Shown piece after piece: positions 36,601-60,843 of a DNA stretch of 64,000 nt (position 1 is the first letter of the stretch; the number at the start of each line of letters is the position of its first letter). The stretch lies in NCBI GenBank assembly GCA_000091205.1, contig AP006486.2; one strand, 5' to 3'. Both the position numbers and the translations under genes were made by a program. Source of the DNA: Cyanidioschyzon merolae. Its lineage: Eukaryota. Below the pieces are notes generated by a model, which saw only the letters and a program-made list of their open reading frames with translations, was not told the DNA's origin and ran no database searches.

Positions 36601-36919
36601 ATAAAGTCACACAGTAACGCCAGCTCAGTTCCAACTCGTCGATCCTACTGCGTTGCGGGCATTTTGCTATGTTCGGCCGTTTACGACACCGAAACTATGA
36701 TGAACGCGACCTGCGCCTAGCGCTGGAAGCGCGTCCCACGGCATCGTGGTACTGGTGAGGTGCATTCTCGACAGCGCGTTGAACAGCAGCACTTCTTTGA
36801 GTCGTTCAACTCAGGTTTGTTTCATCACTGCTGGAGCGTATAGCAGGAGATCGGCATTACGATGCAATGTAGTGTATATATTGTATACGATTTGAATGTA
36901 GGATATATGCTTTACGGAA

Positions 36920-38040
36920 TTATGCACGGAGGACTACGTTCCTCCTTCAGGTCAGTCGTACCCCAGTACTCTGACAACTGGGGAACACTGAAAGGAGCAA
37001 TTATATGTGCACAGCGGTAAAAACCGATACTCTCACAACCTGCTTTGGTTCAGTGGTAGAAAACAACCCGTGGATCAACTTATAGGAAGCAAAAGCGACG
37101 ATTGTAGATAACACAAGCGTCACTGTGCCTCAATAGTTTGTTGGTATGGTACTGAAATCACTGGGATAACGTCACATTAAAAGTCCAATTTCATTCAGAG
37201 CCATCTTCCTCGGACGTCACTACGACAGAATTCCCCGAAAGACGCTATCGATATGAAGCACAGGGACATCGGTTTGTTCTGTCAGTCGATGAGACGTCTT
37301 TCCCACGAGACCGTCCCAGCATATATCGGTATTTGCCGAGAGGAAACCAATTGAATATAAGATCGAACTCGAATAGAAGGCTCATACCACAGCATTCCAT
37401 TTATCCAACCATTGATGACGCTTTCCACGTCTGACAACGTCCTTCTCTTGCACATCGTTGCCTTTCATCGTTCCCTTCGCATTCTTGTTTTTGCGAGTTC
37501 TATCTTCCGGAACTCCTTCTCCCTTGCTGAAAGGTCCTCACCTAAGTCCATTATGAGAGGCGTTCATTTTAAAGCAATAAAAAATCCGTGGGATAGAGAT
37601 GGACATGGAATTCGAGGATTCTGGAGGGCACCAATCGCCAGATTCGACAAAGAAACGAAAAAATTTTCTTCTCGCTGATCATCGAGTGAAGAGGAGCGAG
37701 TAACGAAGAAGAAGAGAGGAGATAGACGAGAATATTTGTTTGCCCGACGGAGCGACGACGAGACCATTGTGGCACAGAGGGCACGAGTTCTAGGAATTCT
37801 TGAATGCATGAATTCGACCAGCGGCAATATATGCAAGGAGTTCATGAACTGAGACTTCATGCCAGCCGACAAGATCAGGAGATGAGTGGGACTGAAGCCG
37901 CAACCCGAAAAGGTGACGCGACTGAATTCTATGGGACAGCCTCCCAGACTCCAATTGTACCTGGATAAACTGAAACCGATACCAGGTGGCCGCTCGAAAA
38001 AGGGAGACGTCTGCAGATCGATATTCGGTTACGCTACGAG
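36920..38040 (+). mobile_element. Degraded third copy (copy C) of the TnpB/Fanzor-like repeat unit
   Basis: 36920-37320 aligns with 8990-9400 at the nucleotide level, e.g. 'cacggaggactacgttcctcc...aaaaaccgatactctca...ggaagcaaaagcgacg...cagccatcttcc'. 37900-38040 encodes 'MGQPPRLQLYLDKLKPIPGGRSKKGDVC', homologous to the C-terminal tails of the other copies ('MGQPLKLEVCRTKLKP', 'GGRSKKLGRVC'). Confidence 0.5.
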
Positions 38041-38283
38041 ATCGTGAAACGTTCTTCGGCTAACCGTACCCCTTGAAGGCTTTCTCTGAGCGTGTGTACA
38101 GTGCACTGTGACAGCCACCACGGTGCTGACGAGTGCACTAGGAAGCAGTTTACCAGCGAAGTTTTGGAGCAGAGCTTGACGTACGAGCTCACTCGAGAGC
38201 CAGCGTGCTCTGATTCGCTAGTGGCTCCTGGTGCACCTGGAGCGTAATATTGAATAGAGGCTTTTTAACGAAAGCGCCGGGTA

Positions 38284-39354
38284 ATGTTCACACAAGCGAA
38301 CTTGCCGCTTGTTCGTCGAGGGTTTGCGTTACGTAGCGAGATTCCGGAACAGTGTTGCCCAAAACGGAGGTTGATTGTTTCGAGACCCAGTCGGGCAGCT
38401 TGGAGTCGCAAGTCACTGTTAGTACAACAACGGTCTGGCGTTGGTACGCTGTCTGCGCGGAGTTCTGTCCAGTTTGATCCAACCGAAGACTATTACGCAG
38501 TTTTAGGAGTGGAAAGCGACGCAGACCTGGCAACCATCAAGCGAGCATATCGCCGACTAGCCTTGCAGAACCACCCTGACGCGAATAAGGATCCGCAGGC
38601 ACGCGAGAAGTTCATTCGCATTCTGCGTGCTTATGAAGTGCTATCGAATGAGGACGCCCGCAAGCAATATGACTTGCAACGTCGCTCGCCGGGTTCGGGG
38701 CCTTTCTGGGGCATCGGAGGTCCTGGCGCGCAGCGGCGACGTTCCAGCAGCACCGAGGAGTACCCCGAGGACTTGAATGATTCTTTTGGAGCTATTTTCT
38801 CGGATCTTATGGAGCAGCTCGGACGTCTTTGGCAGGAGGGCACAAAAGAGAATGGTATTTTTGCAGATTTTGTCGAATTTCTAGAGAGCCAGGGTGCCAA
38901 TTGGGGCTCCCTGCGGAATGAGGACCTCAATAGCGTTCTCACTTCGAGTGATGAAGACGTTCTCCAAGCAGAACTGGATGATGCTCGTTTCGTGCGTGAG
39001 CAATGTGAGCAGCGACTACGCTTGCTTCAAAATTCTCTAGAACTCACCGAGCGGCGACGCGCGGAGCAGGAGCAACGAGCGAAAGATGCACATCTAAGTG
39101 CAGGAACCCAGCAGGAGGCCCGGTCTAAGGTGCATGAGCTCTCGCTGGAGGCGCGGAGACTTCAGTCTCGTATTCGCCAGGTTCAGTCCCTGATTGCTCG
39201 CCAGCGCTCCCGCGAGGGGTTGCTGCAGTCCCGTTTGGATGCAATTCGTCGCGTACAGGAGGCCCGTGCTGCTTCTGAGGAGAAAGTTCGGAATCTGAGA
39301 AGCGAGGTGGAGGAGGAATTGGAGAAATTGAAAAGGGACTTGGGCAAGCTCTGA
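38284..39354 (+). CDS. DnaJ (J-domain) protein with a C-terminal coiled coil
   Basis: The J domain 'DYYAVLGVESDADLATIKRAYRRLALQNHPDANKDPQAREKFIRILRAYEVLSNEDARKQYD' carries the HPD motif. The N-terminal region looks like a presequence. The C-terminus is heptad-rich (EQEQRAKDA...LQSRIRQVQSLIARQ). Confidence 0.85.
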   Translation: MFTQANLPLVRRGFALRSEIPEQCCPKRRLIVSRPSRAAWSRKSLLVQQRSGVGTLSARSSVQFDPTEDYYAVLGVESDADLATIKRAYRRLALQNHPDANKDPQAREKFIRILRAYEVLSNEDARKQYDLQRRSPGSGPFWGIGGPGAQRRRSSSTEEYPEDLNDSFGAIFSDLMEQLGRLWQEGTKENGIFADFVEFLESQGANWGSLRNEDLNSVLTSSDEDVLQAELDDARFVREQCEQRLRLLQNSLELTERRRAEQEQRAKDAHLSAGTQQEARSKVHELSLEARRLQSRIRQVQSLIARQRSREGLLQSRLDAIRRVQEARAASEEKVRNLRSEVEEELEKLKRDLGKL

Positions 39355-40594: not shown

Positions 40595-41112
40595 CGCAAT
40601 GAGCGTACAAGGAATGCGCACGATGTTTTGTCGCAATACCGATACTTGAGTTCCGAACGTCGTATACACACCATGAGTTGGGATGTACACTTCAGAGGGT
40701 CGAGATGGAAAAGTGCCAGAGGAGTCCTGAGGAAATAGCAAAGTACGGACCGCTGACGGAGGAGCAAATGGAAAGGAGGGCAAAAGTGCGAGGACTTCTT
40801 GCACTGGTGAGTACAACGAATGATCGCAAGAAATGGATGGAGTTTGTGAATTGAGATTTTAATGCCGCTATCAATATCCGGAGATGTGCGGTGCTGGAGA
40901 GAAGACCTCCAGAGTCGACAAGACAGAACTTTGTTGGACACCCTCTCAAAGTGGAACTGCATGAGAAAAAATTGGAACCAGTAGGAGGTGGCCGGTCGAA
41001 TAAGAGTGGGAGGCGTCTGCACGACAGTTGGTGGCTTCTTGCCTAGGGCGGGCTTCTCGCCACTACTGTGCACTGCCGGCAGCAACGTTTTTCTTTTGAA
41101 AGGCATTTGTTG
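40595..41112 (+). mobile_element. 5'-truncated TnpB/Fanzor-like element copy (zinc-finger region through RuvC-III to the conserved 3' terminus), a pseudogene
   Basis: It is about 85-90% nucleotide identical to 44540-45054. It encodes '...VN*DFNAAINIRRCAVLERRPPESTRQNFVGHPLKVELHEKKLEPVGGGRSNKSGRRL' with in-frame stops. It ends in 'GGCAGCAACGTTTTTCTTTTGAAAGGCATTTGTTG' at 41112, 29 bp before the macro-domain ATG. Confidence 0.65.
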
Positions 41113-41140
41113 CTCGTGGGTGTGAGCGCCCGCAAGTACC

Positions 41141-41803
41141 ATGCGGGATAAGCTTGGCTTTCTCACGCCGTTCGGAATGAGCAGCAGTACGGTGTATCGC
41201 CTGCGTCCACCAGCACCTCAGACGACTCGGTTGGTACTGAAACAAGCCGACATCACTCGCGAAGCAGTTGATGCGATCGTCAATGCTGCGAACGAGCGCA
41301 TGCTAGGAGGTGGTGGCGTTGACGGCGCCATCCACCGAGCTGCTGGTAAAGAGCTACTGGAGGCTTGTAAGCGGGTACCCGAAAAGCGTCCTGGTGTGCG
41401 GTGTCCTACTGGTGAAGCGGTTCCAATAAAGATCACATGGCCTGTTTCCGAGGGGAACTTGCCTCAGGTGCGCTATATCATAAACACGGTGGGACCGATT
41501 TACCAGAACGCGGAGAAGAGTGCGCCACTTTTGCGCTCGGCGTATCGTAACTCCCTTCTCACAGCAATCGAGCACAACTGTCGATCAATTGCTTTTCCGA
41601 CGATATCTTGCGGCGTGTATGGATATCCTCTTCGAGAGGCCGCTCGAGTTGCACTCGAGGCAGTACAAGACACGCTCGGGGAATCACCGCAGCAGTCGTT
41701 GCAAGAGGTGCGTTTCTGTCTATTCAGTGAGGACGCCTTGAAGACGTGGACACTGGCTGCTGAGCAGCTTCAACTGGAACGCGTGAAAGAAGGCGCTTCA
41801 TAG
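41141..41803 (+). CDS. Macro-domain (ADP-ribose-binding / MacroD-like) protein
   Basis: 'DITREAVDAIVNAANERMLGGGGVDGAIHRAAG' together with 'YIINTVGP' and 'SIAFPTISCGVYGYP' form the canonical macro-domain signature. Confidence 0.85.
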   Translation: MRDKLGFLTPFGMSSSTVYRLRPPAPQTTRLVLKQADITREAVDAIVNAANERMLGGGGVDGAIHRAAGKELLEACKRVPEKRPGVRCPTGEAVPIKITWPVSEGNLPQVRYIINTVGPIYQNAEKSAPLLRSAYRNSLLTAIEHNCRSIAFPTISCGVYGYPLREAARVALEAVQDTLGESPQQSLQEVRFCLFSEDALKTWTLAAEQLQLERVKEGAS

Positions 41804-42709
41804 AAGTATGCTCCAGACATGCGTCTTTATGACAGCGCTATCGATATACCTTGAGTCGCTGCCTCAACCGATATGCGCCTGGCATGCTCAAGCACTTGCA
41901 TAGATGCCAAGTGCGGAACCTGGTGTTTTCGTTGCTCCAAGTCGACTTAGGGTTCCGGTGGAAGGTGCTCCTTCTGTTGAAAAGCGGACGTACACTAGTA
42001 GCAGAATTCAAATCAGTTCCTTATTCCAGCGTCCGTGCGGCATGCATAACAAGCAAAGGGAATAAACGTATATCCGTGCTTGGGAACACTACCGTACCTA
42101 GTTTGTCTACGATCAATAATACTAACGAAACACTTAATGACTAGTGTGACGCATACCTCATCCGCCCAAGCGTAAGCCGCAGCGAAAACTACGCGTGTGC
42201 TGGAGTCATCGAGGGGTTTCGTGCCGGGCCCCAGCGACCCGTTGTATTACAGGGCGGTACTGCTATGGGCAGTAGTGTCGGCACCAGCGACAGAGCCTAG
42301 CGCAGGGGATCACTCTATGTGAGTTTCCGATCTAGGACACCTGATTTCCGCTGCAGTGCGTCGGTGAGAACACGCATGTGCTAATGCGACGTCGGACACG
42401 TGTCCTTCATCGATCCGTGTAGCGTCTCGCGAGGTGCACGCATCGCGCTCAGTGAGTGCACCTGGCAGAACTGGCACTCAACTGACACGACGCGCATGCC
42501 GCCGCCGTTGAAGGGAAACGCAATCTTGATCTCTAGCGTGTAGCTCTAACGTAACAGTTGTATTTTCGTTAATTTCATAGCCAAGTATAGTTTTCAGTTC
42601 GATTGTGTTTCAACCCTCAAGTAAAAATATTCGATTGATTTGTTGCAGTATATAACAGAAGCGTTTAAAGAGGTTTCTTTTTCAAAAAAAAGACTGAAAA
42701 AGGAAAGTT

Positions 42710-45054
42710 ATGGAAAAGCAAGTCGATGATCCTGGAGCTCAGTGTCGCTGGTTGCCAGAAAAACAAAAAAAAACAGTGCCGAGTCCAGAAGAAAAGGAAG
42801 AGAAAAAGAGGCAAAAGGGGGATGCCCTACGTCGAAGGCTGCAAGAAAGACGACTTTACGACGAGATGATGGTGGAAGCCTGCCTTCTTCATTATATCGG
42901 AGATCCGTAGCAGGCAAACTTGCGAGACGCTATCAGAAACCGTGTCGACTCATACTCCAAGAGTATTGTCAAGGCGTCTTCAGGACTGATGCATGTAGCA
43001 ATGGAGGTGTATCGCGAAGTAACGGACATCGACACAGTCAAGATTCCGGAAGATTTTTTCAACAAGACATTTATTCGCCACCTTATCTTTGGTACAGGGG
43101 AAACGTCGAAGAGAAATGAGCGAGTGCATGCCCTCCACTGAAATCACCCCGAATACCGCTTCGATCGTACTCGGTTCAGGGGAGACGGGCATATTTACAC
43201 CTCCGGTGCGATGAAGTACCTCACGATCGTGAAGAAGCACTTGACGATGAACCTGGAACGTTTCATGACACGCGCCGTGTTTGTGCTGTGCCCGGGCCTC
43301 TCTCGCAAAGGAATATGGGCGGTTATCAATGGCATCACGAACGATAGTAAGAGCGAAAGAGAGATCGAATTCATCGGCAAGAAGCCGTCACGCAGGAGCA
43401 CAAATGAGGATTCCGTCATCCGTGCGGTCATAGAAGAGCACCGTGCAGTCTTGGGGTTGGCGAATCAAACAGACAAGATATCAGAGTTGAAAAAAGGATA
43501 GGGAAAGATACTATCGCCTCATCCTGCGCTATTTCGTGTTTCTGGACCGAGGGCTATAACGCAAGGCAGAGGTGCAGCTGAGTGAGGGAAAAAAATGAAG
43601 AGTGGGAGAGACGGAAGGCTGTCCTAATGGAGAAGCGCTTCAACGTGGTTCCAATGTGGAAAGTCAAGTCACATTTTGTGACTATCGACTCCAGCGTCCT
43701 TTACGGCATCACCTAGGAGATCAGTCCGGAGTTCATTGTCAGCAGGGAGAACTTCACCCGCGAAAACCTGGAGACATACTGGAAGAATATCTTCAATTTC
43801 AAACGTCTGAGAGTGAGCAAGCAAAAGTTGTTCACTGGGATGGTCGAAACCGATGGAGTAGCCATGTGTGTACACTATCGGCGGTTGAAGAAAGACCGTC
43901 CAGTTCCGCCCTCGGCTGCGCCCGTGACGAAGGATGAAGAAAAGGAGGAGGCGGATCCTGCAACGCAGGAGGTAGAGAATAACGACCTTGTCGTTGATGC
44001 GGCGAAGCATGAAGATGAGAAGGAGGCGGGTCCTGAGACGCAGAAAGTGCAGAATAACGACCTTGTCGTTGACGCGGACCCTGGGAATACGAATATCATA
44101 ACCATCGCTGTACCCAAACGTGCGGAAGATAGCACTGACGGTAACTTACGTCAGAAAGACATGCGTCTGTTGAGACTCTCGAGAGCGAGATACTATCGCG
44201 AATCCGGTATAATGATTCTAAGGTAGAAAATCGAGACGAAGAATGCAGGAATGAAGGATCACTTTGAGGCTTTGAGCAAGGTGATGGGCCGCGGAGCGGA
44301 CTGTAAAGCTTTTCGGAAATTCATGAAAGTTCGCGTTGCTCATTGGGATGCCTTGTGGGAGGAGTATGCCAAGCCCCGGTGGGTTCGTTTGCGTGTGAAT
44401 CTGTATTGCGGGAAGCAGCGTGCATTCGCGAACTTTTTCAATCAGTTGAGTGCCCTGAAGGAGGATGAAAATCAGAGGCTCGTAGTAGCGTATGGAGCAG
44501 GGCGATGGAAGACCCAAAAAGGGACTACGCCAGCTCCAACGACAAGAACGTACAAGGAGTGCGCCGGGCGTTTCGTCACGATACCTGTAGATGAGCTCCG
44601 AACATCGTATACACACCATGAACTGGGGTGTACACTTCAGTGGGTCGAGATGGAAAAGCCTCAGCGGAGCCCCAAGGCTATAGCAAAGTACGGACCGCTG
44701 ACGGAAGAGCAAATGGAAAGTAGGGCGAAAGTTCGTGGATTGCTTGCACTAGTAAGTACAACGAATGACGGCAAGAAACGTATGGAGTTTGTGTACCGAG
44801 CTTTTAACGCCGCTATCAATACACGGAGATATGCGGTGCTGGAGACGAGACCTCCAGTGTTGACACGAGAGAACTTTGTGAGACAACCGTTTAAAGTGAA
44901 ACTATATGAGAAACAATTGGAAGCAGTAGTTGGTGGCCGATCCAAAAAACTGGGACGCGTCTGCACTTTAGTTGGAGAAGTTTTGTCTACGGCGGGTCGC
45001 TCGCCATTACTGTACACTGGCGGCAGCGTTTTTCTTTTGAAAGGCGTTTGTTAT
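42710..45054 (+). mobile_element. Near-full-length TnpB/Fanzor-like (OMEGA-family RuvC nuclease) element, coding region disrupted
   Basis: Frame 2 (42710-43501) is interrupted by TAG and TGA. It switches to frame 0 (43602-43937) and then frame 1 (43813-45201), where an in-frame TAG at 44224 splits the ORF. Frame 1 carries RuvC-I '[17 protein letters not shown]', RuvC-II 'RFVTIPVDELRTSYTHHELG' and RuvC-III 'EFVYRAFNAAINTRRYAV'. The 3' terminus is shared with the 40.6-41.1 kb copy. Confidence 0.7.
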
Positions 45055-45201
45055 CGCTGCCGTGGCCAAAAGAAACTTTTAAAAGCGATCACGAGGCTTG
45101 ACCAAGACCGCACAAAGGCGACGGCTTGTGAGCAACAACAGAGGTGCTCTTCATGTCCAATGTCGAGCGGCACGAGGAGCCAAACGGAGCGCAGACGCTG
45201 A
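43813..45201 (+). pseudogene. TnpB/Fanzor-like RuvC nuclease reading frame: two ORFs in one frame split by a single TAG at 44224-44226
   Basis: ORFs 43813..44226 and 44251..45201 are both in frame 1 and give '...GIMILR*KIETKNAGMKDHFEAL...'. An internal 72-bp tandem duplication at 43947-44090 encodes '[14 protein letters not shown] / [14 protein letters not shown]'. Confidence 0.6.
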
Positions 45202-48200
45202 AGACCTGGCGAACGCTGGAGATCGCCGGGCTGGAGGTAAAGTTCCCCACAGAATTGGAACCGCACAAGCCGCAGTTGATCATTATGAACCAAGTGATAA
45301 GATGTTTGCAGCGGGCGCAAAACGCGTGCATAGAATCACCTACGGGAACGGGCAAGTCGTTGGCGTTACTCTGTTCGGCGCTGGCGTGGCTCGAAAAAGA
45401 GAAAGAGCGCTCAGAGCCCAGTCTATTAGCGGTTGCAAATCACGCTGATATGCACTCCGAATTTAAACCCGAAACTGAAGAACCCGCCGACGAGAAGCAA
45501 TCAATCCCGAAATTGCTGCCTGAGAGCCGCTCTGCGGCGGATGACTGCGGCGTTCAAGATGTCGACGACGACGACGATGATGATGACTTTACCAGCCGAC
45601 CGGCTCCGCGAGTATCGCAGTTGAAAAGCGCTTCACAGAGATGGCGTCAGCAAGGTGCTGTGGCTGGTACGCGGCATCGATATCCACTTTGTGGAAAGCA
45701 GGTCCCACTGAACCCGCTCTGCAGTGTCGCAGTGCACCTGGAGGGTACGAACCTTGCCGTACAGCAGAGGCACCCACGGATTTTCTTCTGTTCGCGTACG
45801 CACGCTCAACTCTCCCAGGTCATCGCAGAGATGCGCCGCACTCCATACGCTGGTAAGATGCGTTCCACACTGCTGGCGTCGCGGAAGCACTACTGCGTAC
45901 ATGAGGATATTCAGAGAGCGCCATCGACTCTGCAAGCGGAAGCTTGTCAGCGAGCCGTCCAGCTCAGCTTCATGGAGGAGGCCAAGTCTGCAGCTGATGC
46001 ATCCAGCACAGTAGCTGACCCTCTGGCAGGAATATCGCCCTGCTTCTATCATCACAGCGCCGCGGTGAGGCGAACAGCGTGTTCGGCCCCGCAGCCTTTT
46101 CAAATGGAAGATCTCGTGCAAGTCGGTCGCCACTGGCATGGTTGTCCGTATTTTGCATCTCGCTTTCTCGTCCATGGTGACATTCAAACGGAACCAAATC
46201 AAGACTCTGTTGAAGGATCAAGCGTCCCCGACGAACGCTCGCACACGGGAAGCGCTTCGTCTACGGATGGTGCCGTAAGCGCCCGGGCGACTTCATGTAC
46301 AACGCGGACACGAACGATCATAGAGCCTGCTGATATCATCTTTTCTCCATATTCATACCTTGTGGATCCGCTCATTCGTCGACGCATGGATATCGATATC
46401 ACCGGTGCCGTATTGATAATCGACGAAGCTCACAACATAGAAGAGGTGTGCTTAGAAGCGGCATCAGTAGACGTAAGTCTATCACAGGTGCAACGGGTTC
46501 TCCTGCAGCTAGATCACTATCTGGGGGTTCAGATGCCGGAAACAGAGCCCACCCTGGAGACACTGATGGTCCGGCGTCCGTCGTTGAATGGTACGGCGTT
46601 ACTTCGAGTGTTCCGCCACTGGTTGCAGGCCCTAGCGTCCTTCATTGAGACACGAATACCGCTGTTAGATGACATTCACGGCATTCCCGAAAGTCATCGT
46701 CCGACGTCTGGCCCATGCACTGCAGCGCAACGTCTTCATGCACAGGCCACGGTTTTCTGGCAAGACGGTGCTCTCTTGCATGAGTTAGAGGTAGGGTTTT
46801 TCCAAAATTTTGACTTTGAGCAGTGGAACTGGTCCATGGGCCAGTTAAACCGTTTTCTTGATCGCTGGCGTCAGAAACAGCAGCGCACGGTGCCGGCTTT
46901 GGCTTCAGGAATGGCGGCCTCGACGGGCTTTGGAACGGAAACAGCGACCGAAGAACATGCTGAACAGTCGGTGCAGGCGCGTCCCACGACGGGCGATGAG
47001 CGTGCAGAAACCGAGCCCCGCTTCGCGTCTCTGTGCGGTGAAGTGCTCCATCTGCTAGAACGCTTCCACATTGCGCTGCAGTTTATTTACGGCGGACAGA
47101 GCTCGAAGGGCGCAGCTGCACCTGCGGAGGCTTCCCTGCTGCACGCCACAGACTATAGACTTGTACTGAGACGCGAGATGCGCCAGGGCACCTACGGAGG
47201 AGTTGAATTCAAACTTGGACTTTGGTGCATGAATCCCGCAATTGCTTTTCGTCATCTGCGAGACAATGCGCGATCCATCGTGCTTACTTCGGGAACACTA
47301 TCGCCAATGGAATCTTTTCGAAGTGAACTTGCGACCGATTTTCTGTGTCAGACAGAATGCGACCACATTATCGATCCAGAGAAACACGTTCGAGTTTGCG
47401 TTGTGGGAACCAGCAGCTCCGGCGACCGTCTAGAGGGTTCCTACCGAACGAGCGCTACCTGGTCATATCAGGATGCCATCGGCGAAGCGCTTGCGCACTG
47501 CAGCGCACAGATTCCCGATGGTGTGCTCTGTTTCATGCCCTGCTATCGAGTCTTGGAGTCTATGTTGCAGCGCTGGAGCAGCACCGGCGCGATCGAGCGG
47601 ATTTGTGGTGCTAAGCGTCTCTTCATCGAGCGCTCTTCTGGACAAGTTATAACAGAATATGCGACCGAGACTGCTGGCGGATACAGACTTCAGCGTCGTG
47701 GTTGGCGCGACTCCTGCTTTACCCCTGCAAGGGAATATGGGACGGATGCATCTGTGGCGGCTCTCGGGGAACGGCCGAGCTCATTACGTGCTGCGTCTTC
47801 CAGTATCCTGTCTCGGGACCGGTCCAAGCGGAAACGACGCGGTGCTGGTCGAGCGTACACCTCCGCGTCAGCGTATGCAAACCGCGATGCTTTGCAGGTC
47901 TACTACGATGCGGTGGATGCAGCGCGGACTGAGACCACTGCGAGCGCACCGGTACCAGCTGCCAACGCGCGCTGTCGAATAACCGCTGATCACAAAAACG
48001 GGGCCATTATGCTGGCTGTTTGCCGGGGCAAGATCAGCGAAGGATTGAACTTTGCCGATCAGTACGGTCGCGCAGTCATTATGGTCGGTATTCCGTACCC
48101 CAATCTGACGGACACGTTTGTCCAGCTGAAGATGCGCTACAATGACGAGCGCAGCGGTGCAGTTTCTGGTGCTCCCATCAATGCTACGAGCACGAGTCGT

Positions 48201-51930: not shown

Positions 51931-52497
51931 CGATACGAACTGGTACCCTGCCGGACGTGCTAGCCGTTTGCAAAGCGTCGCCCATCGCTGGTGATATCAG
52001 CGCGAACCTGAATCCGCTGCATCATGTGCGTTTCAAGATGATCGAGTAGCAAGCACTGGTGCTCATGACACGTCATGAAAAGCATCGCCTATTATTATGA
52101 TCGCTTTCGCGACCGAAACGAGGTGCACGATATGCGATCCATGCATGAGCAGCCTTTTTCAGCAAGTTGCTCGCATGAACGCCATGCGTGCTCCGCCTGC
52201 TCCCCGAATGCACTTCATCTCGATAGCAGATACCTGATGCAGGCGGAGAATTTTAACGAATCCATGCCTCTTGGCTGCAGGCATAGAAAGAATCCATTGA
52301 GACGCTCGATTCGCGTGCGAAACGAATCATGCAACACGATTGTCTCGAGCGAGTTGCCTCAGCAGCCACGTCCATGAAATGCAGCGACTGTGCGTCATCT
52401 GAGGAACGCAAATCGCCAACAGCTGTCTGGAACGCGGGCGACGCGACATTGGTGCGAGCGCTGGCTGCGCATTCTAATCACGGGTGCAGGCATTCAA

Positions 52498-52753
52498 CAT
52501 TGTGCGTGCACTGCTAGAGGATATTATATGCGTGTCCAGCATTGTGCATGCACTGCTAGAGGATATTATATGCGTGTCCAGCTTTCTGCGTGCACTTCTA
52601 GAAGGATCATACATGCGTGTCCAGCTTTCTGCGTACAAATCTAGAAGGATCATACATGCGTGTCCAGCTTTCTGCGTACAAATCTAGAAGGATCATACAT
52701 GCGTGCTCAGCATTGTGCGTGCACTTCTAGAAGGATATTACATGCGTGTTCAG
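52498..52753. repeat. Minisatellite: about 6 tandem copies of a 42-43 bp unit
   Basis: Units are 'cattgtgcgtgcactgctagaggatattatatgcgtgtccag' and 'ctttctgcgt(g/a)ca(c/a)(t/a)tctagaaggatcatacatgcgtgtccag', repeated head-to-tail. The array lies in the intergenic region between the MT-A70-like and ABCC 3' ends. Confidence 0.85.
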
Positions 52754-53835
52754 GAGACCACGAGGTCGCGCGTTACTTGGGTATACAGAAGGCTAGATTA
52801 CGCGCCCGTAAGGGCTGCAACATATGGAAATGCAACAACAGCACCACAAGCTTGATGTACCCTACGGGAGGCGATACTCAGAGCGCGTGCGATTGATGAC
52901 AAGAATGTATGGTGCTTCACCTGCTCTGAACTAGATGCTATCCAAATTGGCATTTAGTGCTCTGTGGAGCGGCGGATCTATGCTCTGCCTACAGACTGGC
53001 TAGTTGGCACTGTACCGAAACAGGAATCATACAGTATTTCGCATCGAAAAATAACCTACCATCTACCATCAAGAGTGGATGCGAGGCTGCACAGCAACAG
53101 GCCCTGTTGCCGCGCACCAAGCGCGGACTTTTTGCGGCTGCGCCATGTTATTTGGAAACTCCAAGACCTTGCGCCTTTTCCTGCATATTTACTTAGAGCA
53201 TGGACGTACTCTTGGACGCTGGTGCAAGTTGTACAGGTGGCGTGAGCGCGCCGCGGGGGCCAGCATTGTCGTCGACCTAACCGCCTATCCTCTGTAACAT
53301 GAGACACTTTCAGCGGAGCCCGGTCAAGACGCTGTTGCCAGCCTGCGCTTCGCCCTAGAGCACGTTCTCAGTTGGAGATTCGGAAAACTGCTTCGAAGAC
53401 CAGCCGCTTCGATTTCGTTTGAGCCACGCCCAACACCATTGAACTGAAAGCGCTCGTCCCGGCATTCGTCAAACGCTGTAGAAAAACGAGAAGAGCAGAC
53501 CAGCTCACGGACTCGTGTGTTTGCTTGGGTACCAGAACACCTCCGTATGAGGGCATGATGCGAGCTGGGTCAGGTGACGTCAAGCGGCGGCTGCAGCGCC
53601 CTTTAACAGCGCCCTCCCAAACGAACGCGTAGCCAATGTCCAGGGGTCGCGCCTCCATCCATTCCTAAGCCTTGACCTCTAGTCTCCGTGCACGCAGCCT
53701 CGATGCTGAAGGCTTTTTTCTTCAAATTCTCTACAGGGAACCAAGTATAGGAAAGGTTCAGTCCTACTCGTTTCGTTTTGATCTGTCCAAGCAAGTATCG
53801 CTCGTGCGGACCAGCCGAGGCACCGCCGAGCCCGG

Positions 53836-56800
53836 CTACGACAACGTACCCGAAGTGATCTGCTCGAGAACACCTTGTTCCCAAGCCAGTTGGTAGAAAA
53901 GCGAGTCTCGACGCTGTAGCAACGACGCAGGTGACCCGCATTCGACAACACGCCCTGCGGCGAGACCGATGATGAGATCACAATCCAATATCGTATCCAT
54001 ACGATGTGCGATAATGAGGAGTGTCGAGCCCTGTAGGCAAGCTCGAATCGTCCGCTGGATCGCTCGATCTGTACGGTAATCAAGGTTCGCGGTACTCTCG
54101 TCCAGGACGAGGACACGAGGTCGCCGCAGAAGCACTCGTGCTAAACACAACAACTGCCGTTGGCCTGCGGACAAGTTAGAGCCACCCTCCGCAATGTGGG
54201 TATCTAACGACGGAAACCGGTTACTCGACTTCAACGCAGGCATACTCCGCGCCTGCTCTTCCTGCTGCTTGAGAGCGGCAGTGCTTGCACCATGCGCTGC
54301 GAGCGTTCCGTGCTCAGCAACTGCATCGGCGGCGTTCACGGCTGCATCGGTGCCGGTCTTCGTGTGGGCGCTCGTGTCGCCGTGGCGACAACCAGCCACA
54401 GCAGTTTTCGTCGCAGTTCGGTCCACAGCCGCCCACGCGGAATGCGTATCGTTTTCCGCCAGGCTAACGTACCGCAGCGCCTGCCACAACTCCGCGTCAG
54501 TATGGCGATGAAACGGATCCAGGTTTTCTCGGAGCGTTCCGCGGAAAAGAATGGTATCCTGGGTGACCATCGCAAGGCGTTCACGCAACTGCGCCACCCC
54601 GACTCGGCTGATATCGATCCCGTCCACGATGACGGCTCCGGCTTGTAGCGGATCGCCCACAGTGCGAAATAGCACCTGTGCAATGGAAGACTTGCCGGCA
54701 CCGGTGCGACCTATGAGACCAACCCGTTGTCCAGGAAGGATCGTAAACGACACCCCACGCAACGCTGGCGGCAACTCTGGTCGATAACGCATCCAGACGT
54801 CGCGAAACTCGACCCGTCCTTCGCTTGGCCAGTGCGCTGGAAGGGAGCCTTCGATGTACGCAGGCGCCTCACTGGGAATCTCCCAGAGGATGCGCTCCAC
54901 AGCGCTCATACCGTTCTCGACTTCGGTGGTCATCCGAACCAGCCATGAGAGTGTCTGCGTCACCAGGAGGCTATAGGTTATCGAAAGACCTGCCGCCGCC
55001 GGACTAAGGCTCCGGCGAAAGAGAAACACAGCGAGTGCAGTGGCGAACACCGTCATTGCACTGAGCATCTCCAGTCGGAAAGACAGCCAACGATTACAGG
55101 CAACGGAGTAGAGGTACGGCCGCATATGATCCGCCACTGCCTCGAGGAAGACCTGAACATGTTCTCGAACGAGTCCAAAAGCTCGAATGACTGGTATTCC
55201 GGCAGCTGTTTCTCCCATTCGTGCAAGGATTGGCGACTTGCTGAGCGCCTCGAGTCGTTTTAACTCGCGCGACGTACACAGATAGTAGCGCGAGAGGCGG
55301 TAATAGAGAATCCCAGTGGGTATCAGCACCAGGAGCATGACAGGCGTCACCGTGCTGGTCACCCAGACCACCCCCAAAACCTGAAGAATGCAGTTCAGGA
55401 AAGACAGCAGCGCATAGGGGAGGTCTTCATCGAGGGCGTCCTGATCTTTGCTGAAACGATTCAGGATCCGGCCCACGGGAGTTGTATCGAAGAACATCGT
55501 CGGTGCCCGCAGCACGACCTGCAGCAAGCGCGTGTGAAGACCAATTGCAGCAGACAGCGTACTCAAAGCTGCCAGAATGGACCGTGCTAACAACATCAGC
55601 AAGGTGGATAAATTCAGCAGGGCGTAAATCCCCAGATAGAAAGATGTCGCGTGGAGTACGCGCTGCGAATCCGACCGAGACGTCTCAGCTGCGCGTTCAC
55701 GACTCGGACGGTTCGGGAACCCCCAGAATATGCTTTGCTTCCACGAGCGTCCTTGCTGGTAGCGTGATGTAAGCGCATCTGCACAAGAGCGATGTTGTTG
55801 GTACTGTTGCCACCCTCTGTGCTCCTGATCCGGAGTTAGCACAGAGACAACTTGATGCTCTTCGGCAGCGAGATGTGATCCAGAAGGCGTCATAAGATTT
55901 TGGATACGGGTTCGCACCCCTGGAGACATTTTCGGGACATGCCCAAGCCCTGGGGCACCCGTAGGCAACCCAGAGGGCGTAGAGGGGTTTCGCTTATCGG
56001 CACCAGTTCGTTGCGCAGCGCTGGTGGCAGCTCGCGAGCCCGCCTCAGACCAGATACCAAGCCATGAATCTGTTCCGATGCGGAAAACCTGTGCCAACAC
56101 TGACGCCAAAATCGTTACTGCTAACAGGAACCGACCTGCTGCTGCAAAGTACGCGAGGTAAACAGTCCTTTTCACGGATCCGGTTTCTCGATTCTCTGCT
56201 GTAACCAGTTGATGGGAGGTAGTGCCTGGGGCTTCGGGCATCGACTCGGGATCCGCAGACGGGGCTGCACCATCTGCAGGACTCTCGTGGTTGCTCGCCA
56301 CCGCGTACGTCGCCCTAGACCGCAACGCATACTTGTCGTTGTCATTGTTGTCAGCGAACTGGTCGAACGCATTGCCTTTCGCGTGCGGCGTCGCCCCTTG
56401 CTCTATGCCAGGTCGCGACGACTGCGCTATCGACACTTCGCTCAGGGGCAGGTCTCCGACAGCGTGTTCCGCAGCGAGTGCATCTTCAGGGGCGCCACGC
56501 CCAGCACCAGCAGTAGCATCAATAGTGCCCAGCGGGAAAGAGCCTGATACCTCCAGCTCATTGCTGTGTTCCATGACGAGTGGCTCCGCTGCCCGCGACG
56601 TTGGCACTCGAAAAGCACCCGCTTTGTCGCCGGAAGCTAACAGCTGTTTCTCATCGTTCTCGGCATCCGACAAAAGCGATACCTGTATGGGGGACGCTTG
56701 CTGATCCCGGGGCTTCCCCCTGGGGATCCTCAGCGGTTGCGGACGAACGCTGTGCCGCTGAATGCGTCCGCCCGCAAGTTCGATCACCAGGTCGGCACGA

Positions 56801-59800
56801 GAAAGCCACTGGCGGTGGTGTGTTACCAGGATTCGGGTGCGACCTCGAGCCAGCGGGCCGCACAGCGCTCGCTCAAACAGAACACGACCCACAGTGGCAT
56901 CTACTGCAGACAGCGGGTCATCCAGCAGCAAGAGTGAGGCGCATGAGTAGAGTGCTCGCGCCAAGGCAACTCGCGCTTTCTGACCACCGCTCAAGTTGAT
57001 GCCTTTGCTCCCAATCTCTGTGCGGTCTCCGGCGGGCATCTGGGCAAGGTCGTCGACCAGCGCTGTGGCCTCGAGCACTTCCCGGTACCTTTGTTCGTCC
57101 AGAGGTGTGTAGAAGAGGATATTCTCGCGGAGCGAGGCGTTCATGAGATACGCCTCCTGTGGACAATAGCCGATCGTCGTTGGTCGAACGAGGTGATGGG
57201 CGCCCTGGTACGACGAAGCAAACGACCGGGTTGTTTTGGCTTCGAAAGTGGTGCTCATCGCAGCCTCCACAGTCGCTGGATAGCCATACAGCTCACCGAG
57301 AATGGCCAGTAACAGAGAGGATTTTCCACTTCCGACCTCACCACAAATGAGCACAAGTTGTCCGCGCTGAATCTGCAACGTGATATCGTGGAGCACCCAC
57401 GATAAAGTTCCCTGACCTGGAGACGCTTCAGTCATCTCCGGGGTATTTTTCAGCGCATTTTTCCGAGACGGAACGGTGCCTGCCTGATTTGTAGCGAAAG
57501 GCCCGGCGCCCGTATTCGTGTCCGTATCCATATCCATAATCGTATCCATATCCGGATCACATGCGGCTGCGTTGCGGAACGTTTGCCCCAGATGCACAGA
57601 TGCCGTCGTCTGGTCAACGGCCTTGTCGTCGGGCACTAGGCCGCCATGGACACCCTGAACGACACTGCCCTCATAGGTCGAACGGTCTACGTCATTGTGC
57701 TTGGCTCCGAATGAACACGATACTGCATCGAGATTCTGAATTGACGCTGCCAGTTCATGGCGGGGCACCAATAGTGATGATCCACCCATAGACGACTGCC
57801 CAGATGCGCTACTGTGTACACTAGGTACTCCCAGAAGCAGCGATGCATCAAGCTGCATCGGCAGAGGCTCAAAAGCGTACGACATGTGGCGTAGCGAAAT
57901 CACCACGTCGTCGCCTGGAGCTTCCATTCCAGGCGTCGCTTCGTTCCAGTGCCCTGCGCGGAAACTCGTACCATACGGAGGAAGCAATCGACTTGCAGTT
58001 GTCTGCCGCTGATGCAGACGAGACTCTTGGTGTTCTTGCAGCGATGTGGATCGCGCTGCGGATGTATCCGATAAAAAGGGCAGTGAAGGCACTCGCAACA
58101 ACTCAGAACCCGGTGTCTCGCGGGTTGCAGCTGACCCTGCGTCAATAAACAATGAAGCCTCTGCCGGTGCATCAGTGGATCGCATCGTTTCGGTACCTGC
58201 AACAGGAAAATGTGTCACGTCTGCTGCTGCTGCTTTGGATGCGCTCTGCGAGTTTGCCACACGATCAAGTCCGTTCGCTGGTCCACCCCCGAGGAAACTA
58301 CTGGTCGCCTTTCGAGCAACGGATGGCCGTCCAGCGAGCGTCTCGGATACCTCAGTGCCGCTCGAAGCAGAATCCGTTTCCACTGCATCCAACGCGAACC
58401 GCTCCGGTACCTCATAGTGACAGAGAAAGGCCTGGATCCGCCGTAGACTCACAGCGGCGTCCATAAGGGAACTGAGCACGTCCGGAAAAACACTCAGCGG
58501 GAAACGCAAGATATTGAAGAGCGTCAGCGCTCCAAAGGCAGTTGCGGGCGTCAAACGCTGCGCGCTGGGGCCCACACCCATGCAGCCAAAAGTTACCAGC
58601 GCCGTTGCGACAGGCGCAGCAGCCCAAGAAAAGTTCGAGAACGCTTCTAAAAGTTGTTTGCGACGCAAAACTTGCGTCTCCCGCAGCCTCGCTTCCTGAA
58701 CGCGTTCAAAAAAGGCCTGCTCCCAGCCCATGATCTTGATCTGTCGAATACCCGACAAGATTTCATGGAGCAGTCGAATCCGTTCATCTTTGCGTTCCAT
58801 CAGCGCTCGACTTTGTTGCCCAATTAAGCGAGCTACCCAGCCATTTAGCGGAATAAGCGCCGCCATGAACAGGAAGCCCGCAAAGGCCGCCATACCTACC
58901 ACTCGATACAAGCACACCATGGCGATGATGATCTGCAACGGACCAGACCAAATGATGTGCAGGTACGGGGTCAGGTCCACGGTTGCGCGTTGGGTATCCA
59001 CTGCCAACAGATTCACAATGTCTCCAGCTCCGTAATGGTTGCGGGCGCAAACACTCAACCGAAGTGTCTTGCGATAAATGGCATCCATGAGTGCAGCCCG
59101 TGCCTGCATCCCAACGCGGTAATTCATATGGAAATACTGGTGTAGGCAGATCGATTGCAACATTGGAGCAGTGAAAAGTGCTAGCACGCAGAGCATGCCT
59201 TCAAGAGAGCTTTCTTCGTGTGCACCACGCGACAAGAACTGCAGCATGCGTTCCAGCGCTAGTGGCCCTACAAAGTTCAGCAGATCATAGCACAGCTTGA
59301 GTGGTGCAGAACCCAGACAGCGCCCTCCGAACGCGTCTAACAGGGCCAGCACGACCGCTCCGAGACCTTGTTCCGGTCGCTTCGGTACGACATCTTCGCG
59401 GCATTCAGTAGATACGCTCAGAGGACGCGGTGACTTCGCAACGGTATGCGGTGAAGCCAGAAACGCTTCGTGGTTTGTTTGCTCCTCCTCGGGATCTGTG
59501 GGCGACATCGCTACTCCAGACCTGTGCAGTATCCAAAGGCGAAGCTGTGAAAAGAGCCCGCAAATGCCACGCGGATGAGGTACGTGCGGCGCTTCACGCG
59601 TGGCTCGACCCTGGCTATGGTCACGAGCACGGGGCCGGTACTGGTGGCGTTCACAGCGGCGTTTCCAGGTTTCCTGGAACCGAGCACTAATCCTAGTAGG
59701 ATCATCGATGCTGGGCAAGGACCACAAGTCGTCCAGTTCCAAAGGTTTGATTTTTCCCAGTTCTAGAAGTGCATTCAGCCAGCGGAACGTGATTCGCGTC

Positions 59801-60003
59801 CACAGTCCAGCGTCCTGCTCAGGACAGCGCAGGGCGGCACAGACGAGCCGCTCCTGTGGGAACTGCCAACTGGATGGCGCTCTACCTGGACCATTTTCTG
59901 TCCACAAAAAAGTCTCTTTCTCTTCGACGAGTCGAAACGTCTCCTCGTCGTCGATAGAAGCAGGCAACTGCGCAGGAGACGTCGCCGCTGCTCCCGTGGG
60001 CAT
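53836..60003 (-). CDS. ABCC/MRP-type full ABC transporter (TMD-NBD-TMD-NBD), 2055 aa
   Basis: NBD1 has Walker A 'GEVGSGKSSLLLAILGEL', signature 'LSGGQKARVALARALY' and Walker B 'LLLLDDPLSAVD'. NBD2 has 'GRTGAGKSSIAQVLFR', 'LSAGQRQLLCLARVLLRRPRVLVLDESTANLD' and 'LIIAHRMDTI'. Multiple hydrophobic TM blocks are present. There are long low-complexity inserts between NBD1 and TMD2 and inside NBD2. Confidence 0.95.
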   Translation of the reverse strand: MPTGAAATSPAQLPASIDDEETFRLVEEKETFLWTENGPGRAPSSWQFPQERLVCAALRCPEQDAGLWTRITFRWLNALLELGKIKPLELDDLWSLPSIDDPTRISARFQETWKRRCERHQYRPRARDHSQGRATREAPHVPHPRGICGLFSQLRLWILHRSGVAMSPTDPEEEQTNHEAFLASPHTVAKSPRPLSVSTECREDVVPKRPEQGLGAVVLALLDAFGGRCLGSAPLKLCYDLLNFVGPLALERMLQFLSRGAHEESSLEGMLCVLALFTAPMLQSICLHQYFHMNYRVGMQARAALMDAIYRKTLRLSVCARNHYGAGDIVNLLAVDTQRATVDLTPYLHIIWSGPLQIIIAMVCLYRVVGMAAFAGFLFMAALIPLNGWVARLIGQQSRALMERKDERIRLLHEILSGIRQIKIMGWEQAFFERVQEARLRETQVLRRKQLLEAFSNFSWAAAPVATALVTFGCMGVGPSAQRLTPATAFGALTLFNILRFPLSVFPDVLSSLMDAAVSLRRIQAFLCHYEVPERFALDAVETDSASSGTEVSETLAGRPSVARKATSSFLGGGPANGLDRVANSQSASKAAAADVTHFPVAGTETMRSTDAPAEASLFIDAGSAATRETPGSELLRVPSLPFLSDTSAARSTSLQEHQESRLHQRQTTASRLLPPYGTSFRAGHWNEATPGMEAPGDDVVISLRHMSYAFEPLPMQLDASLLLGVPSVHSSASGQSSMGGSSLLVPRHELAASIQNLDAVSCSFGAKHNDVDRSTYEGSVVQGVHGGLVPDDKAVDQTTASVHLGQTFRNAAACDPDMDTIMDMDTDTNTGAGPFATNQAGTVPSRKNALKNTPEMTEASPGQGTLSWVLHDITLQIQRGQLVLICGEVGSGKSSLLLAILGELYGYPATVEAAMSTTFEAKTTRSFASSYQGAHHLVRPTTIGYCPQEAYLMNASLRENILFYTPLDEQRYREVLEATALVDDLAQMPAGDRTEIGSKGINLSGGQKARVALARALYSCASLLLLDDPLSAVDATVGRVLFERALCGPLARGRTRILVTHHRQWLSRADLVIELAGGRIQRHSVRPQPLRIPRGKPRDQQASPIQVSLLSDAENDEKQLLASGDKAGAFRVPTSRAAEPLVMEHSNELEVSGSFPLGTIDATAGAGRGAPEDALAAEHAVGDLPLSEVSIAQSSRPGIEQGATPHAKGNAFDQFADNNDNDKYALRSRATYAVASNHESPADGAAPSADPESMPEAPGTTSHQLVTAENRETGSVKRTVYLAYFAAAGRFLLAVTILASVLAQVFRIGTDSWLGIWSEAGSRAATSAAQRTGADKRNPSTPSGLPTGAPGLGHVPKMSPGVRTRIQNLMTPSGSHLAAEEHQVVSVLTPDQEHRGWQQYQQHRSCADALTSRYQQGRSWKQSIFWGFPNRPSRERAAETSRSDSQRVLHATSFYLGIYALLNLSTLLMLLARSILAALSTLSAAIGLHTRLLQVVLRAPTMFFDTTPVGRILNRFSKDQDALDEDLPYALLSFLNCILQVLGVVWVTSTVTPVMLLVLIPTGILYYRLSRYYLCTSRELKRLEALSKSPILARMGETAAGIPVIRAFGLVREHVQVFLEAVADHMRPYLYSVACNRWLSFRLEMLSAMTVFATALAVFLFRRSLSPAAAGLSITYSLLVTQTLSWLVRMTTEVENGMSAVERILWEIPSEAPAYIEGSLPAHWPSEGRVEFRDVWMRYRPELPPALRGVSFTILPGQRVGLIGRTGAGKSSIAQVLFRTVGDPLQAGAVIVDGIDISRVGVAQLRERLAMVTQDTILFRGTLRENLDPFHRHTDAELWQALRYVSLAENDTHSAWAAVDRTATKTAVAGCRHGDTSAHTKTGTDAAVNAADAVAEHGTLAAHGASTAALKQQEEQARSMPALKSSNRFPSLDTHIAEGGSNLSAGQRQLLCLARVLLRRPRVLVLDESTANLDYRTDRAIQRTIRACLQGSTLLIIAHRMDTILDCDLIIGLAAGRVVECGSPASLLQRRDSLFYQLAWEQGVLEQITSGTLS

Positions 60004-60149
60004 CTTCCGGCGCTGATGGTGTCGTGTTCCCAGTAAGCAAGGTGAAAGGCAATGCAGTTCAGAGTTGAAACTTTTTCTCTACAATTCCGTCAGTGCAAAG
60101 CGAATGCTGTCCAGTGTTCAGCCTTGATGTTAGATATCCACACGCGTGA

Positions 60150-60551
60150 CGCCTAGTCCTGATGGAGAGTCCACAGACAGTCAGAGCAGCGAACAATGTT
60201 TGCGATTTGCGAGGGTTCATGAGTACCCATGCCCAGACGCCTCCTAGTCATTTTTGACCGGTCGCCTGTTATCGGTTCCTGTGCTTATCCAGGTACGCTT
60301 CGGGCTTGAGAGGCTGTACCATAATGTTAGGTCGTCTTCAGCACCACACATCGTCTAATGTTGATAGCAGCGTTGAAGACTCGGTGGACAAAGTCCGTGC
60401 GTTTATTGCCGCGGCTTGGACTCATCCATTTAAGGATTGTTAGAACTCGTTCCTTCAGTGCGACTACAGTCTCGTCATCGTGCTGTCGGACAGGCGCCAA
60501 TTCCCGTGTATCTCCCCTTTTCTTGGTCCTCTTCGCGCGATGGTAGGCCAC
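60150..60551 (-). mobile_element. TnpB/Fanzor-like element fragment (RuvC-III and tail) directly upstream of, and co-oriented with, the ABCC gene
   Basis: ORF 60327..60551(-) ends with 'TDFVHRVFNAAINIRRCVVLKTT'. Downstream on the minus strand, 'MTRRRLGMG' resembles the 'GGRSKKLGRVC / SGRRLHDS' tails of the other copies. Confidence 0.5.
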
Positions 60552-60843
60552 GAGAGGATTTTTTCATTTTTTGTCGAAACCGGGGATGACGGCTCTCCTG
60601 CATCCAGACGTCCATGTCTATACATTTCGCTTGGATTTTTAATTTCTCCAAATGAACGCACTTCGAAAACGTCTGCTATAAACTGCGACAAAGCATTTGA
60701 TGACATGCACCTGGATGCGGCGTAAAATTGAGGTGAAAGACAACAAGCAAAGTGTCCATAAAAGAAGGACAGCGTGTTTATCGTGCTGAACAGCTACGTT
60801 GCCTTTCCCAACCAGGATGATGAAACGTCTTCCACACGATCGC

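Follow-up and report, generated by a model that had tools for sequence, protein, structure and literature searches.

The window analysed here, a stretch of 64,000 nucleotides (nt) of Cyanidioschyzon merolae DNA (contig AP006486.2), contains at least eight related pieces derived from Fanzor1, a mobile element with an RNA-guided nuclease gene, and four of them end shortly before host genes of the same orientation. The pieces were found by self-comparison of the window and by tblastn with homologous proteins. On the plus strand, copy C (36800-38068, its end placed by comparison with 11 other copies of its subfamily) stops 216 nt before the ATG of a DnaJ-domain gene (38284-39354; Pfam DnaJ, E=9e-24; orthologues in loci L083 and L085), copy D (40601 to 41112-41124) stops 17-29 nt before that of a macro-domain gene (41141-41803; Pfam Macro, E=3e-39; 73% identical to a Cyanidiococcus yangmingshanensis protein), and copy E (41987 to 45052-45066) stops 87-100 nt before the start of a helicase gene of the DEAD_2 (XPD/RTEL) type (45153-48464; Pfam DEAD_2 and Helicase_C_2; start in agreement with the L085 orthologue). 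On the minus strand, copy F (60178-60659) has its 3' end at 60178, 175 nt from the start of an ABCC-type transporter gene (53836-60003; Pfam ABC_membrane and ABC_tran), taken as the first ATG of the open reading frame (ORF) at 60003. These host genes are intron-free ORFs, and those for the DnaJ, macro and helicase proteins are also supported by synteny with two sister species. The similarity of the macro protein to that of Cyanidiococcus marks the host as a cyanidiophycean red alga, an inhabitant of hot springs.

All four arrangements had been proposed in a sequence-only reading of the window, and each was found again with refined coordinates. The placement of C was right, with an end that alignment moves from about 38040 to 38068; and E does precede the helicase gene, with an extent that begins at 41987 and not at 42.7 kb. 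The helicase ATG had been set at 45144, a codon that is in fact GTG; since, in addition, the Cyanidiococcus orthologue starts at the equivalent of 45153, we took this latter position as the start. It had also been said that the last ORF of E runs into the helicase gene, and this holds, because the natural stop codon of E is lost and ORF 44251-45201 consequently continues into the beginning of the helicase gene. A total of six copies was too low, as two further pieces (Z and Y) had to be added, and neither these nor copies A and B lie upstream of a same-strand gene. Random insertion in element-free intergenic DNA would give a same-strand ATG within 250 nt with a probability of 0.11; against this expectation, four of six copies yield p=0.002 and four of eight p=0.007, for a threshold of 250 nt that was chosen post hoc. 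D and E belong to the main subfamily (subfamily 1). E is its most complete copy, with a 5' extension (41987-42441) and a Fanzor ORF that is interrupted by stops and frameshifts and is a pseudogene, while D (82% identical to E and to related loci) is 5'-truncated to its last 510 nt or so, which comprise a coding remnant of the RuvC C-terminus, a stop and the 3' tail. Copies A, B, C and F, the latter 5'-truncated as well, form a second subfamily that has in common with the first only the last 230 nt or so of coding sequence (about 67% identity) and that ends differently (...TTTTTCG.T.CACTGA).

The placement of D and E recurs in a sample about ten times larger, which bears out, for their subfamily, the proposal that position and orientation of the 3' end relative to gene starts are not random. 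The sample consisted of the best 80 of 371 confirmed matches among Joint Genome Institute (JGI) metagenome loci of the same alga, a choice skewed to long copies. D/E-type 3' ends were located in these loci and in the window, the tail remnants with which long copies begin were set aside, and de-duplication on 300 nt of downstream flank left 55 distinct ends, 53 of them with a called gene. Genes were called, after masking of element DNA, as the nearest ORF downstream that was free of overlap, began with ATG and reached at least 150 amino acids (aa), and the null was drawn from random intergenic positions on the same contigs with the same calls; element ends are precise to about ±15 nt, genes are ORF calls and the contigs are metagenomic. 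The next gene was co-oriented with the element in 40 of 53 cases and opposite in 13 (binomial p=2.7e-4). An ATG lay within 150 nt of the end in 28 of the 53, as against 7.0% expected (p~1e-18), and within 50 nt in 15, as against 2.4% (p~2e-12). Orientation was 25 to 5 in favour of the gene's own strand for copies of at least 2.4 kb, and 15 to 8 for shorter or contig-cut ones. Without de-duplication, the 66 intergenic regions that bear an element comprised 30 divergent, 29 tandem and 7 convergent ones, compared with 45, 89 and 71, respectively, among 205 element-free regions. Distance on the 5' side was a poor control because unmasked 5' modules inflate its values, and an nhmmer profile of the tail retrieved almost no additional short fragments (107 matches vs 102-104 by blastn). 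In at least one pair of loci (L028:8275 and L029:8286), contigs from different samples are collinear through the element and diverge exactly at its 3' end, one of them leading on to a bicarbonate transporter gene and the other to FtsZ. The cause is a chimeric assembly inside the repeat or else a recombination event between copies.

Pfam domains were present in 18 of 20 close downstream ORFs scanned, and the downstream genes include those for a subunit of the ATP-synthase alpha/beta family, FtsZ, phosphoglucomutase, signal peptide peptidase, a bicarbonate transporter, a polyprenyl synthase and a pentatricopeptide repeat (PPR) protein. For a UBC-domain protein, Cys-tRNA synthetase, a zuotin-type DnaJ protein and an aldehyde dehydrogenase, the domain starts within 11-27 residues and the ATG lies 13-49 nt from the projected element end, distances that shrink once the fuzzy end is counted. 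Thus, in the E2 enzyme (UBC) the domain begins at residue 12, and the ATG is 13 nt away if the projected end is used and 1-2 nt if the fuzzy end is; in Cys-tRNA synthetase the domain begins at residue 27, with the ATG about 12-25 nt from the element, and in the zuotin-type protein also at residue 27, with the ATG at 14 nt. With domains so close to the N-terminus, the ATGs of the E2 enzyme, Cys-tRNA synthetase and zuotin are not movable, and with so little non-element DNA before many ATGs, host transcripts must start in the 3' tail of the element or traverse it. Judged from sequence, therefore, many ordinary genes, often essential ones, must have the element end in their promoter or 5' leader. 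These data also bear on the idea that a compact genome, ORF-based gene calls or redundant metagenome contigs mimic a bias. Intergenic regions are indeed short (medians of 460-840 nt), gene starts are the first ATGs of long ORFs and the contigs come from several samples of one population. However, the null came from the same contigs and gene calls, flank comparison had removed duplicate loci, orientation was tested independently of distance, and genuine genes, with domains near the N-terminus, account for 18 of the 20 downstream ORFs. The matched null, the de-duplication and the Pfam checks largely exclude such an artefact, which we consider extremely improbable.

On sequence grounds, the repeats derive from a Fanzor1 element without a transposase, in which a gene for a eukaryotic RNA-guided nuclease of the TnpB type is followed by a structured 3' tail; the copies are old and most of them are dead. 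The frame of copy E has 217 homologous proteins, all from metagenomes, and the family proteins carry the motifs GADPG (GADPGNTN), VDEFRTS and NRDFNAAINI of a split RuvC domain with a D...E...D triad, whose residues D421, E592 and D658 are invariant or nearly so among 28 distant full-length homologues. A profile built from the alignment of these 28 matched the solved Fanzor1 structures of Parasitella (9cf0, E=4.7e-18), Spizellomyces (8gkh, E=6e-10) and Guillardia (9cer, E=2e-4), which identifies the element as Fanzor1, whereas single members and a close-family profile found no match in Pfam, NCBIfam or PDB. Exhaustive profile searching of a library of 50%-identity representatives gave about 1,370 relatives, many of 600-700 aa. 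None of ten distant relatives scanned (from P0245 to P0391) matched a Pfam model at E<=0.01, so that current domain libraries overlook this TnpB/Fanzor branch. An AlphaFold2 model of the RuvC part, made from the shallow family alignment, was too poor to be of use (predicted local distance difference test, pLDDT, 46). Near-intact ORFs exist, such as one of 722 aa at L009:3351-5516, and most copies are dead. Copy E has RA in place of RD in RuvC-III (YRAFNAAIN); together with a 1-nt deletion near the end and the change of the natural stop from TAG to TAC, this yields the 316-aa ORF that overlaps the helicase start, the equivalent of which (P0001, 97% identical) was called as a protein by a prokaryotic gene caller on a metagenome contig. 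Two tandem repeats of 75 nt (43928-44077, plus strand) inside the Fanzor ORF encode acidic units of 25 aa just ahead of the first RuvC motif, and their number ranges by copy from 2 to at least 6 (ORFs of L003, L008, L009 and L011, and the window).

Throughout the 80 loci the 3' end is constant. A natural stop (GTCTAG) is followed by a conserved tail of about 65 nt (...GGGCG..CGCCACTACTGTACAC..GGCG), then by a terminal hairpin and, past it, by 7-16 nt of fading similarity that end near GGTG(C). The hairpin exists in two sequence variants with compensatory changes (CGTTCGA-CTT-TCGAACG and AACGTTTTTC-TTTT-GAAAGRCGTT), and at least two copies (in L045 and L004) have unrelated hairpins in the same place. 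Its plus-strand positions in the window are 41087-41104 in D (GTTTTTC-TTTT-GAAAGGC; RNA fold of -5.8 kcal/mol, z=-2.5) and 45026-45047 in E (GCGTTTTTC-TTTT-GAAAGGCGT; -8.8 kcal/mol, z=-5.6). Hairpins were assessed by folding each copy singly, and RNAalifold predicted no consensus pairs in the 55-copy alignment of 3' ends (160 nt). At the other end, many copies start at a hairpin (GCGCTC-GGT-GAGCGC) whose counterpart in the window, placed by an alignment of 14 copies and four long references, is GCGCTC-AGT-GAGTGC (42445-42459, plus strand), and upstream of it at least three different repeated modules are attached, depending on the copy. The 5' ends map to many reference positions, with truncated forms of 2.2, 1.2, 0.5 (D) and 0.1 kb. 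Constancy at the 3' side and variability at the 5' side show that copying of the element was anchored at the former.

The longest form (3.6 kb) opens with a copy of about 100 nt of the 3' tail. Such older-tail remnants, followed by about 670 nt of non-coding DNA, were seen at L018:1237-1337, L039:1045-1145, L011:926-1026, L035:4270-4370 and L005:4209-4309 (in the window, 41987-42441), and in L018, L039 and L011, inspected by eye, the remnant and the copy's own 3' tail have different hairpin variants. A long terminal repeat (LTR) was considered and ruled out, as the identity of these repeats within elements (0.67-0.70) is no higher than between elements (0.67) and the hairpin variants differ; the repeat is best read as a transduced older remnant. 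Together with the alternative modules that join at one point, it looks like 5' transduction. In L005:4209-11417 two copies stand head to tail in the same orientation, with a tail remnant before the first and about 1.1 kb between them that includes a short opposite-strand ORF.

This anatomy bears on how the element moved. Its constant 3' end with a hairpin, truncation from the 5' side down to 100 nt, occasional 5' transduction and lack of terminal inverted repeats (TIRs) recall copying of the type of long and short interspersed elements (LINE/SINE) or one-ended rolling-circle copying. It might therefore have been mobilised in trans, by a non-LTR reverse transcriptase (RT) of the stringent type or an HUH rolling-circle enzyme that recognises the 3' hairpin tail and whose targeting sets the placement, and an analogy with HAL1 drawn by Bao and Jurka (PMC3627910) points the same way. 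Against such a mobilisation, which we consider unlikely, no poly(A), A-run or microsatellite was present at the 3' ends, which stop at ...GGTG(C), and no target-site duplications (TSDs) were evident in D or E, where they may have decayed at 17% divergence. Moreover, no gene for an RT, Rep or TnpA (Y1 HUH) protein was found in the window and no second gene besides Fanzor in the 3.6-kb long copies, nor was there any partner element with the same tail in about 1.1 Mb of loci, in which every tail match is a Fanzor copy.

The sequence-only reading had offered guide-directed homing as one of three explanations. A Fanzor-omega-RNA complex would cut sites that match the guide, that is, the 3' flank of the donor, and the element would be copied into the break. 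It suits this scheme that the element encodes only a nuclease, that copying is anchored at the end where the guide would lie, and that similarity fades over 7-16 nt past the hairpin rather than ending sharply. Further out, however, one flank has nothing in common with another (from +17 on, the information content is about 0), so that each copy would have to carry a different guide, and nothing links guide content to gene starts. TnpB and Cas12 cut distal to the target-adjacent motif (TAM), which by our own reasoning would not readily prime copying into the element. Neither an empty target nor a TAM or other conserved motif was identified at the flanks of the copies. With copies only about 83% identical and 3' flanks that differ beyond those 7-16 nt, homing finds no support and is in our opinion very unlikely.

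As to the history of the window copies, the syntenic region (RecQ, DnaJ, macro, helicase, ORF, ABCC) of L083 and of Cyanidiococcus (L085) gave no Fanzor-like sequence by tblastn or blastn, from which it follows that the window copies are lineage-specific insertions. Between the macro and helicase genes the window has only about 284 nt of non-element DNA (41804-41986 plus 45067-45152), as against 1.4-2.1 kb in the relatives (L083:10664-12736 and L085:10631-12076). The element has effectively replaced this intergenic region, and the ancestral promoter of the helicase gene can hardly still be in place. In the RecQ-DnaJ and DnaJ-macro intervals, the length of non-element DNA roughly equals that of the entire spacer of the relatives. 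Intergenic DNA of the sister species is not alignable with the window. With a macro protein 70-73% identical to those of sequenced relatives, the alga of the window was judged to be a species different from them. Strains of the same population (L001, L046 and L059) and six contigs with an identical macro protein all carry C, D and E; no insertion polymorphism or empty site was found among them, and the six contigs share one arrangement. All copies are old, with a median pairwise identity of 83% and of 90% for the closest pair.

This age makes plausible the main rival of an integration preference, namely, pure survivorship. Insertion would be random in position and orientation, copies elsewhere in this streamlined genome would have been deleted or selected against, and those lying in sense just upstream of genes would have been kept as promoter or 5' untranslated region (UTR). 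Several other observations agree with it. Many copies are truncated at the 5' side yet keep the 3' end. An intact terminal hairpin is more frequent among gene-adjacent copies (18 of 28) than among the remainder (8 of 27; Fisher p=0.015), which hints weakly at retention. Divergence between strains amounts to 1.2-2.6% in the element bodies and to 0.4-1.8% in other intergenic DNA and at third codon positions; the bodies thus change no more slowly than these and evolve neutrally. On the other side, survivorship demands an about tenfold advantage for insertions 7-150 nt from the ATGs of essential genes (7% expected, 53% seen), the fewest copies are found between convergent genes, which are the least harmful places, and most gene-adjacent copies retain 2.4-3 kb of dead sequence, so that deletion pressure is not obviously strong. 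On balance we regard survivorship alone as possible and rather unlikely.

Our tentative preference, held at somewhat less than even confidence, is for directional, 3'-anchored integration at the 5' edges of genes, with copies kept through outward transcription from their right end. The element, copied from its 3' end, would integrate in one direction and favour the 5' edge of transcription units, in promoter or 5'UTR DNA. In TnpB and Fanzor systems, transcription across the right end into the flank is known to supply the guide part of the omega-RNA. The architecture of the Fanzor1 omega-RNA (PMC11423790), taken together with what is known of the family, is consistent with such outward transcription. 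Reading out of the right end would keep the downstream gene expressed, so that copies would be tolerated first and retained later, and the element tail may in this way have become the 5' leader or proximal promoter of the gene. The other two explanations of the earlier reading, target preference and donation of promoter or 5'UTR sequence, both fit ATGs that lie about 1-15 nt from the element end, and the data do not tell them apart.

Several results weigh against 3'-anchored integration at gene 5' edges. The 13 copies that face gene ends, and about 12 co-oriented ones more than 150 nt away, make the placement a tendency and not a rule, and seven bystander copies in the flanks of the loci show a weaker pattern (four same, three opposite). 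Subfamily 2, to which two of the four cases of the sequence-only reading belong, has no tight bias: among A, B, C, F and eight others, five or six are co-oriented and four opposite, mostly at 300-1270 nt, and C and F may thus adjoin gene starts by chance; a protein search for more copies of this subfamily gave two matches only, both in one locus. As for mimicry of host promoters, no 6-mer was significantly strand-biased in 195 native upstream regions and no notable one was shared with the tail. The neutral evolution of the element bodies counts here as well, and over the 202 nt formed by the tail of E and the adjoining spacer up to the ATG, strains show 1 mismatch, a number too small to infer constraint. 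Finally, with all copies old and neither an empty site nor a polymorphism found, integration preference and selective survival are not separable.

Comparison with known systems places the family and its peculiarity. CMe-1A of C. merolae (Bao and Jurka 2013, PMC3627910) is a Fanzor1 family of about 3 kb and some 150 copies about 80% identical to their consensus, without TIRs, with undetermined TSDs and of unknown class, and a short repeat (TE-N2_CMe) shares its 5' part. By description, which is the basis of the match, the window family is alike: about 3 kb, a Fanzor1 gene only, no TIRs or recognisable TSDs, old copies and a cyanidiophycean host. Where CMe-1A has a short repeat that shares its 5' part, the window family has alternative 5' modules that join at one point, an arrangement that may be the counterpart of the TE-N2_CMe relationship in C. 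merolae. The paper on CMe-1A (PMC3627910) has nothing on position or orientation with respect to host genes. With IS200/IS605 elements that carry TnpB and a right-end omega-RNA, the family shares a homologous nuclease, a structured 3' end that reaches the element boundary, hairpins near each end, the lack of TIRs and TSDs and a presumed need for transcription that runs out of the right end; it differs in that neither a TnpA (Y1 HUH) gene nor a defined target or TAM motif was found, and in its variable 5' ends and eukaryotic host. A constant 3' end with variable 5' truncation is also typical of non-LTR retroposons, which move by target-primed reverse transcription, but no poly(A) or simple-repeat tail, TSD or RT partner was found here.

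Elements that target the 5' ends of genes are well known: Tf1 at RNA polymerase II (Pol II) promoters in S. pombe, TRE5-A of Dictyostelium and yeast Ty3 upstream of Pol III genes, both at a fixed distance and orientation, and P and Mutator. As in these, insertions are enriched just upstream of genes in a compact genome, and in the D/E subfamily the random-insertion null is exceeded for gene-start enrichment and for orientation. Those elements encode their own integrase or an RT tethered to transcription factors, whereas the Fanzor1 element has no known integration enzyme, and its targets are Pol II protein-coding genes, with the 3' end within tens of nt of the ATG. It is also known that outward promoters of insertion sequence (IS) elements and solo LTRs drive neighbouring genes. 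Here, too, a terminal element segment lies in sense where the promoter or 5'UTR of the gene belongs, with a putative promoter role for the Fanzor tail; unlike the case of solo LTRs, the 5' repeat of about 100 nt in long copies is not an LTR. TldR proteins, which are TnpB-derived, nuclease-dead, RNA-guided transcription factors (PMC10705468), likewise tie a gene of the TnpB family and a guide RNA to host gene regulation. They act in trans as conserved intact proteins whose guide targets a promoter, whereas the Fanzor1 copies are pseudogenes and their link to the host gene is adjacency in cis.

The remaining pieces in the window are not associated with gene starts. Z (58-1135, plus strand) is the C-terminal half of a divergent Fanzor1 pseudogene, found by tblastn with family proteins and distant homologues and cut by the window edge; no gene start adjoins it and it faces copy A. 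The latter (2382-3790, minus strand), detected by blastn and tblastn and with its 3' end set by an alignment of 12 subfamily-2 copies, faces Z in turn and has no host gene downstream of that end. Copy B (8871-10285, plus strand) is an inverted duplicate of A (91-96% identical); the nearest downstream gene is on the opposite strand, 1182 nt off, and B faces its 3' end. The duplication (2432-3477 vs 9188-10233, 96% identical; 91% over 1.26 kb) flanks about 5 kb with three host ORFs, one of unknown nature (4855-5550), a PBP-like gene (6225-7094) and a SCAMP gene (7897-8691), and outside of it A and B are ordinary diverged family members, which suggests gene conversion or inversion between two older copies. 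Y (about 31110-32259, minus strand), a degenerate N-terminal part of a divergent copy found by tblastn with the distant homologues P0245 and P0257, has no recognisable 3' end and is not gene-adjacent. Z and Y are more diverged still, being nearer to P0245 (34-41% aa identity) than to D and E, so that the window holds at least three Fanzor1 lineages. The DNA between ORF 50047-51930 and the ABCC gene is devoid of genes and contains a tandem array of about six 43-nt units (52494-52774; 67-93% identical). Searches of the window for tRNA genes and Rfam families gave no match.

The element family, the preference of transposable elements for gene 5' regions and the action of element ends as outward promoters are already known. 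Within the literature searched, no report was found of a Fanzor- or TnpB-type element that has its omega-RNA end immediately before host protein-coding genes and in the same orientation as these. Fanzor and TnpB elements have mainly been studied as genome-editing nucleases, and how transposase-less Fanzor1 families such as CMe-1A spread and affect their hosts has been an open question since 2013, for which the placement bias offers a concrete handle. The bias predicts transcription starts inside the element tail, and it constrains models of mobilisation to copying that is 3'-anchored, directional and near gene 5' ends. Element tails also become candidates for compact promoters or leaders in C. 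merolae, a genetically tractable system. More generally, the bias illustrates how the regulatory DNA of essential genes can come to include the ends of a mobile element, and this in a eukaryote whose genome is among the most reduced. In its fullest form, the proposal holds that dozens of host genes (among them those for the E2 enzyme, Cys-tRNA synthetase, FtsZ and an ATP synthase subunit) have as their proximal promoter or 5' leader the structured right end of a Fanzor1 element that lacks a transposase, as a result of 3'-anchored, transcription-coupled copying at gene 5' ends that needs no conventional transposase; in this form we put it forward as doubtful. If true, it would mean a new mode of integration for OMEGA-type elements and a wholesale recruitment of outward guide-RNA transcription for host gene expression.

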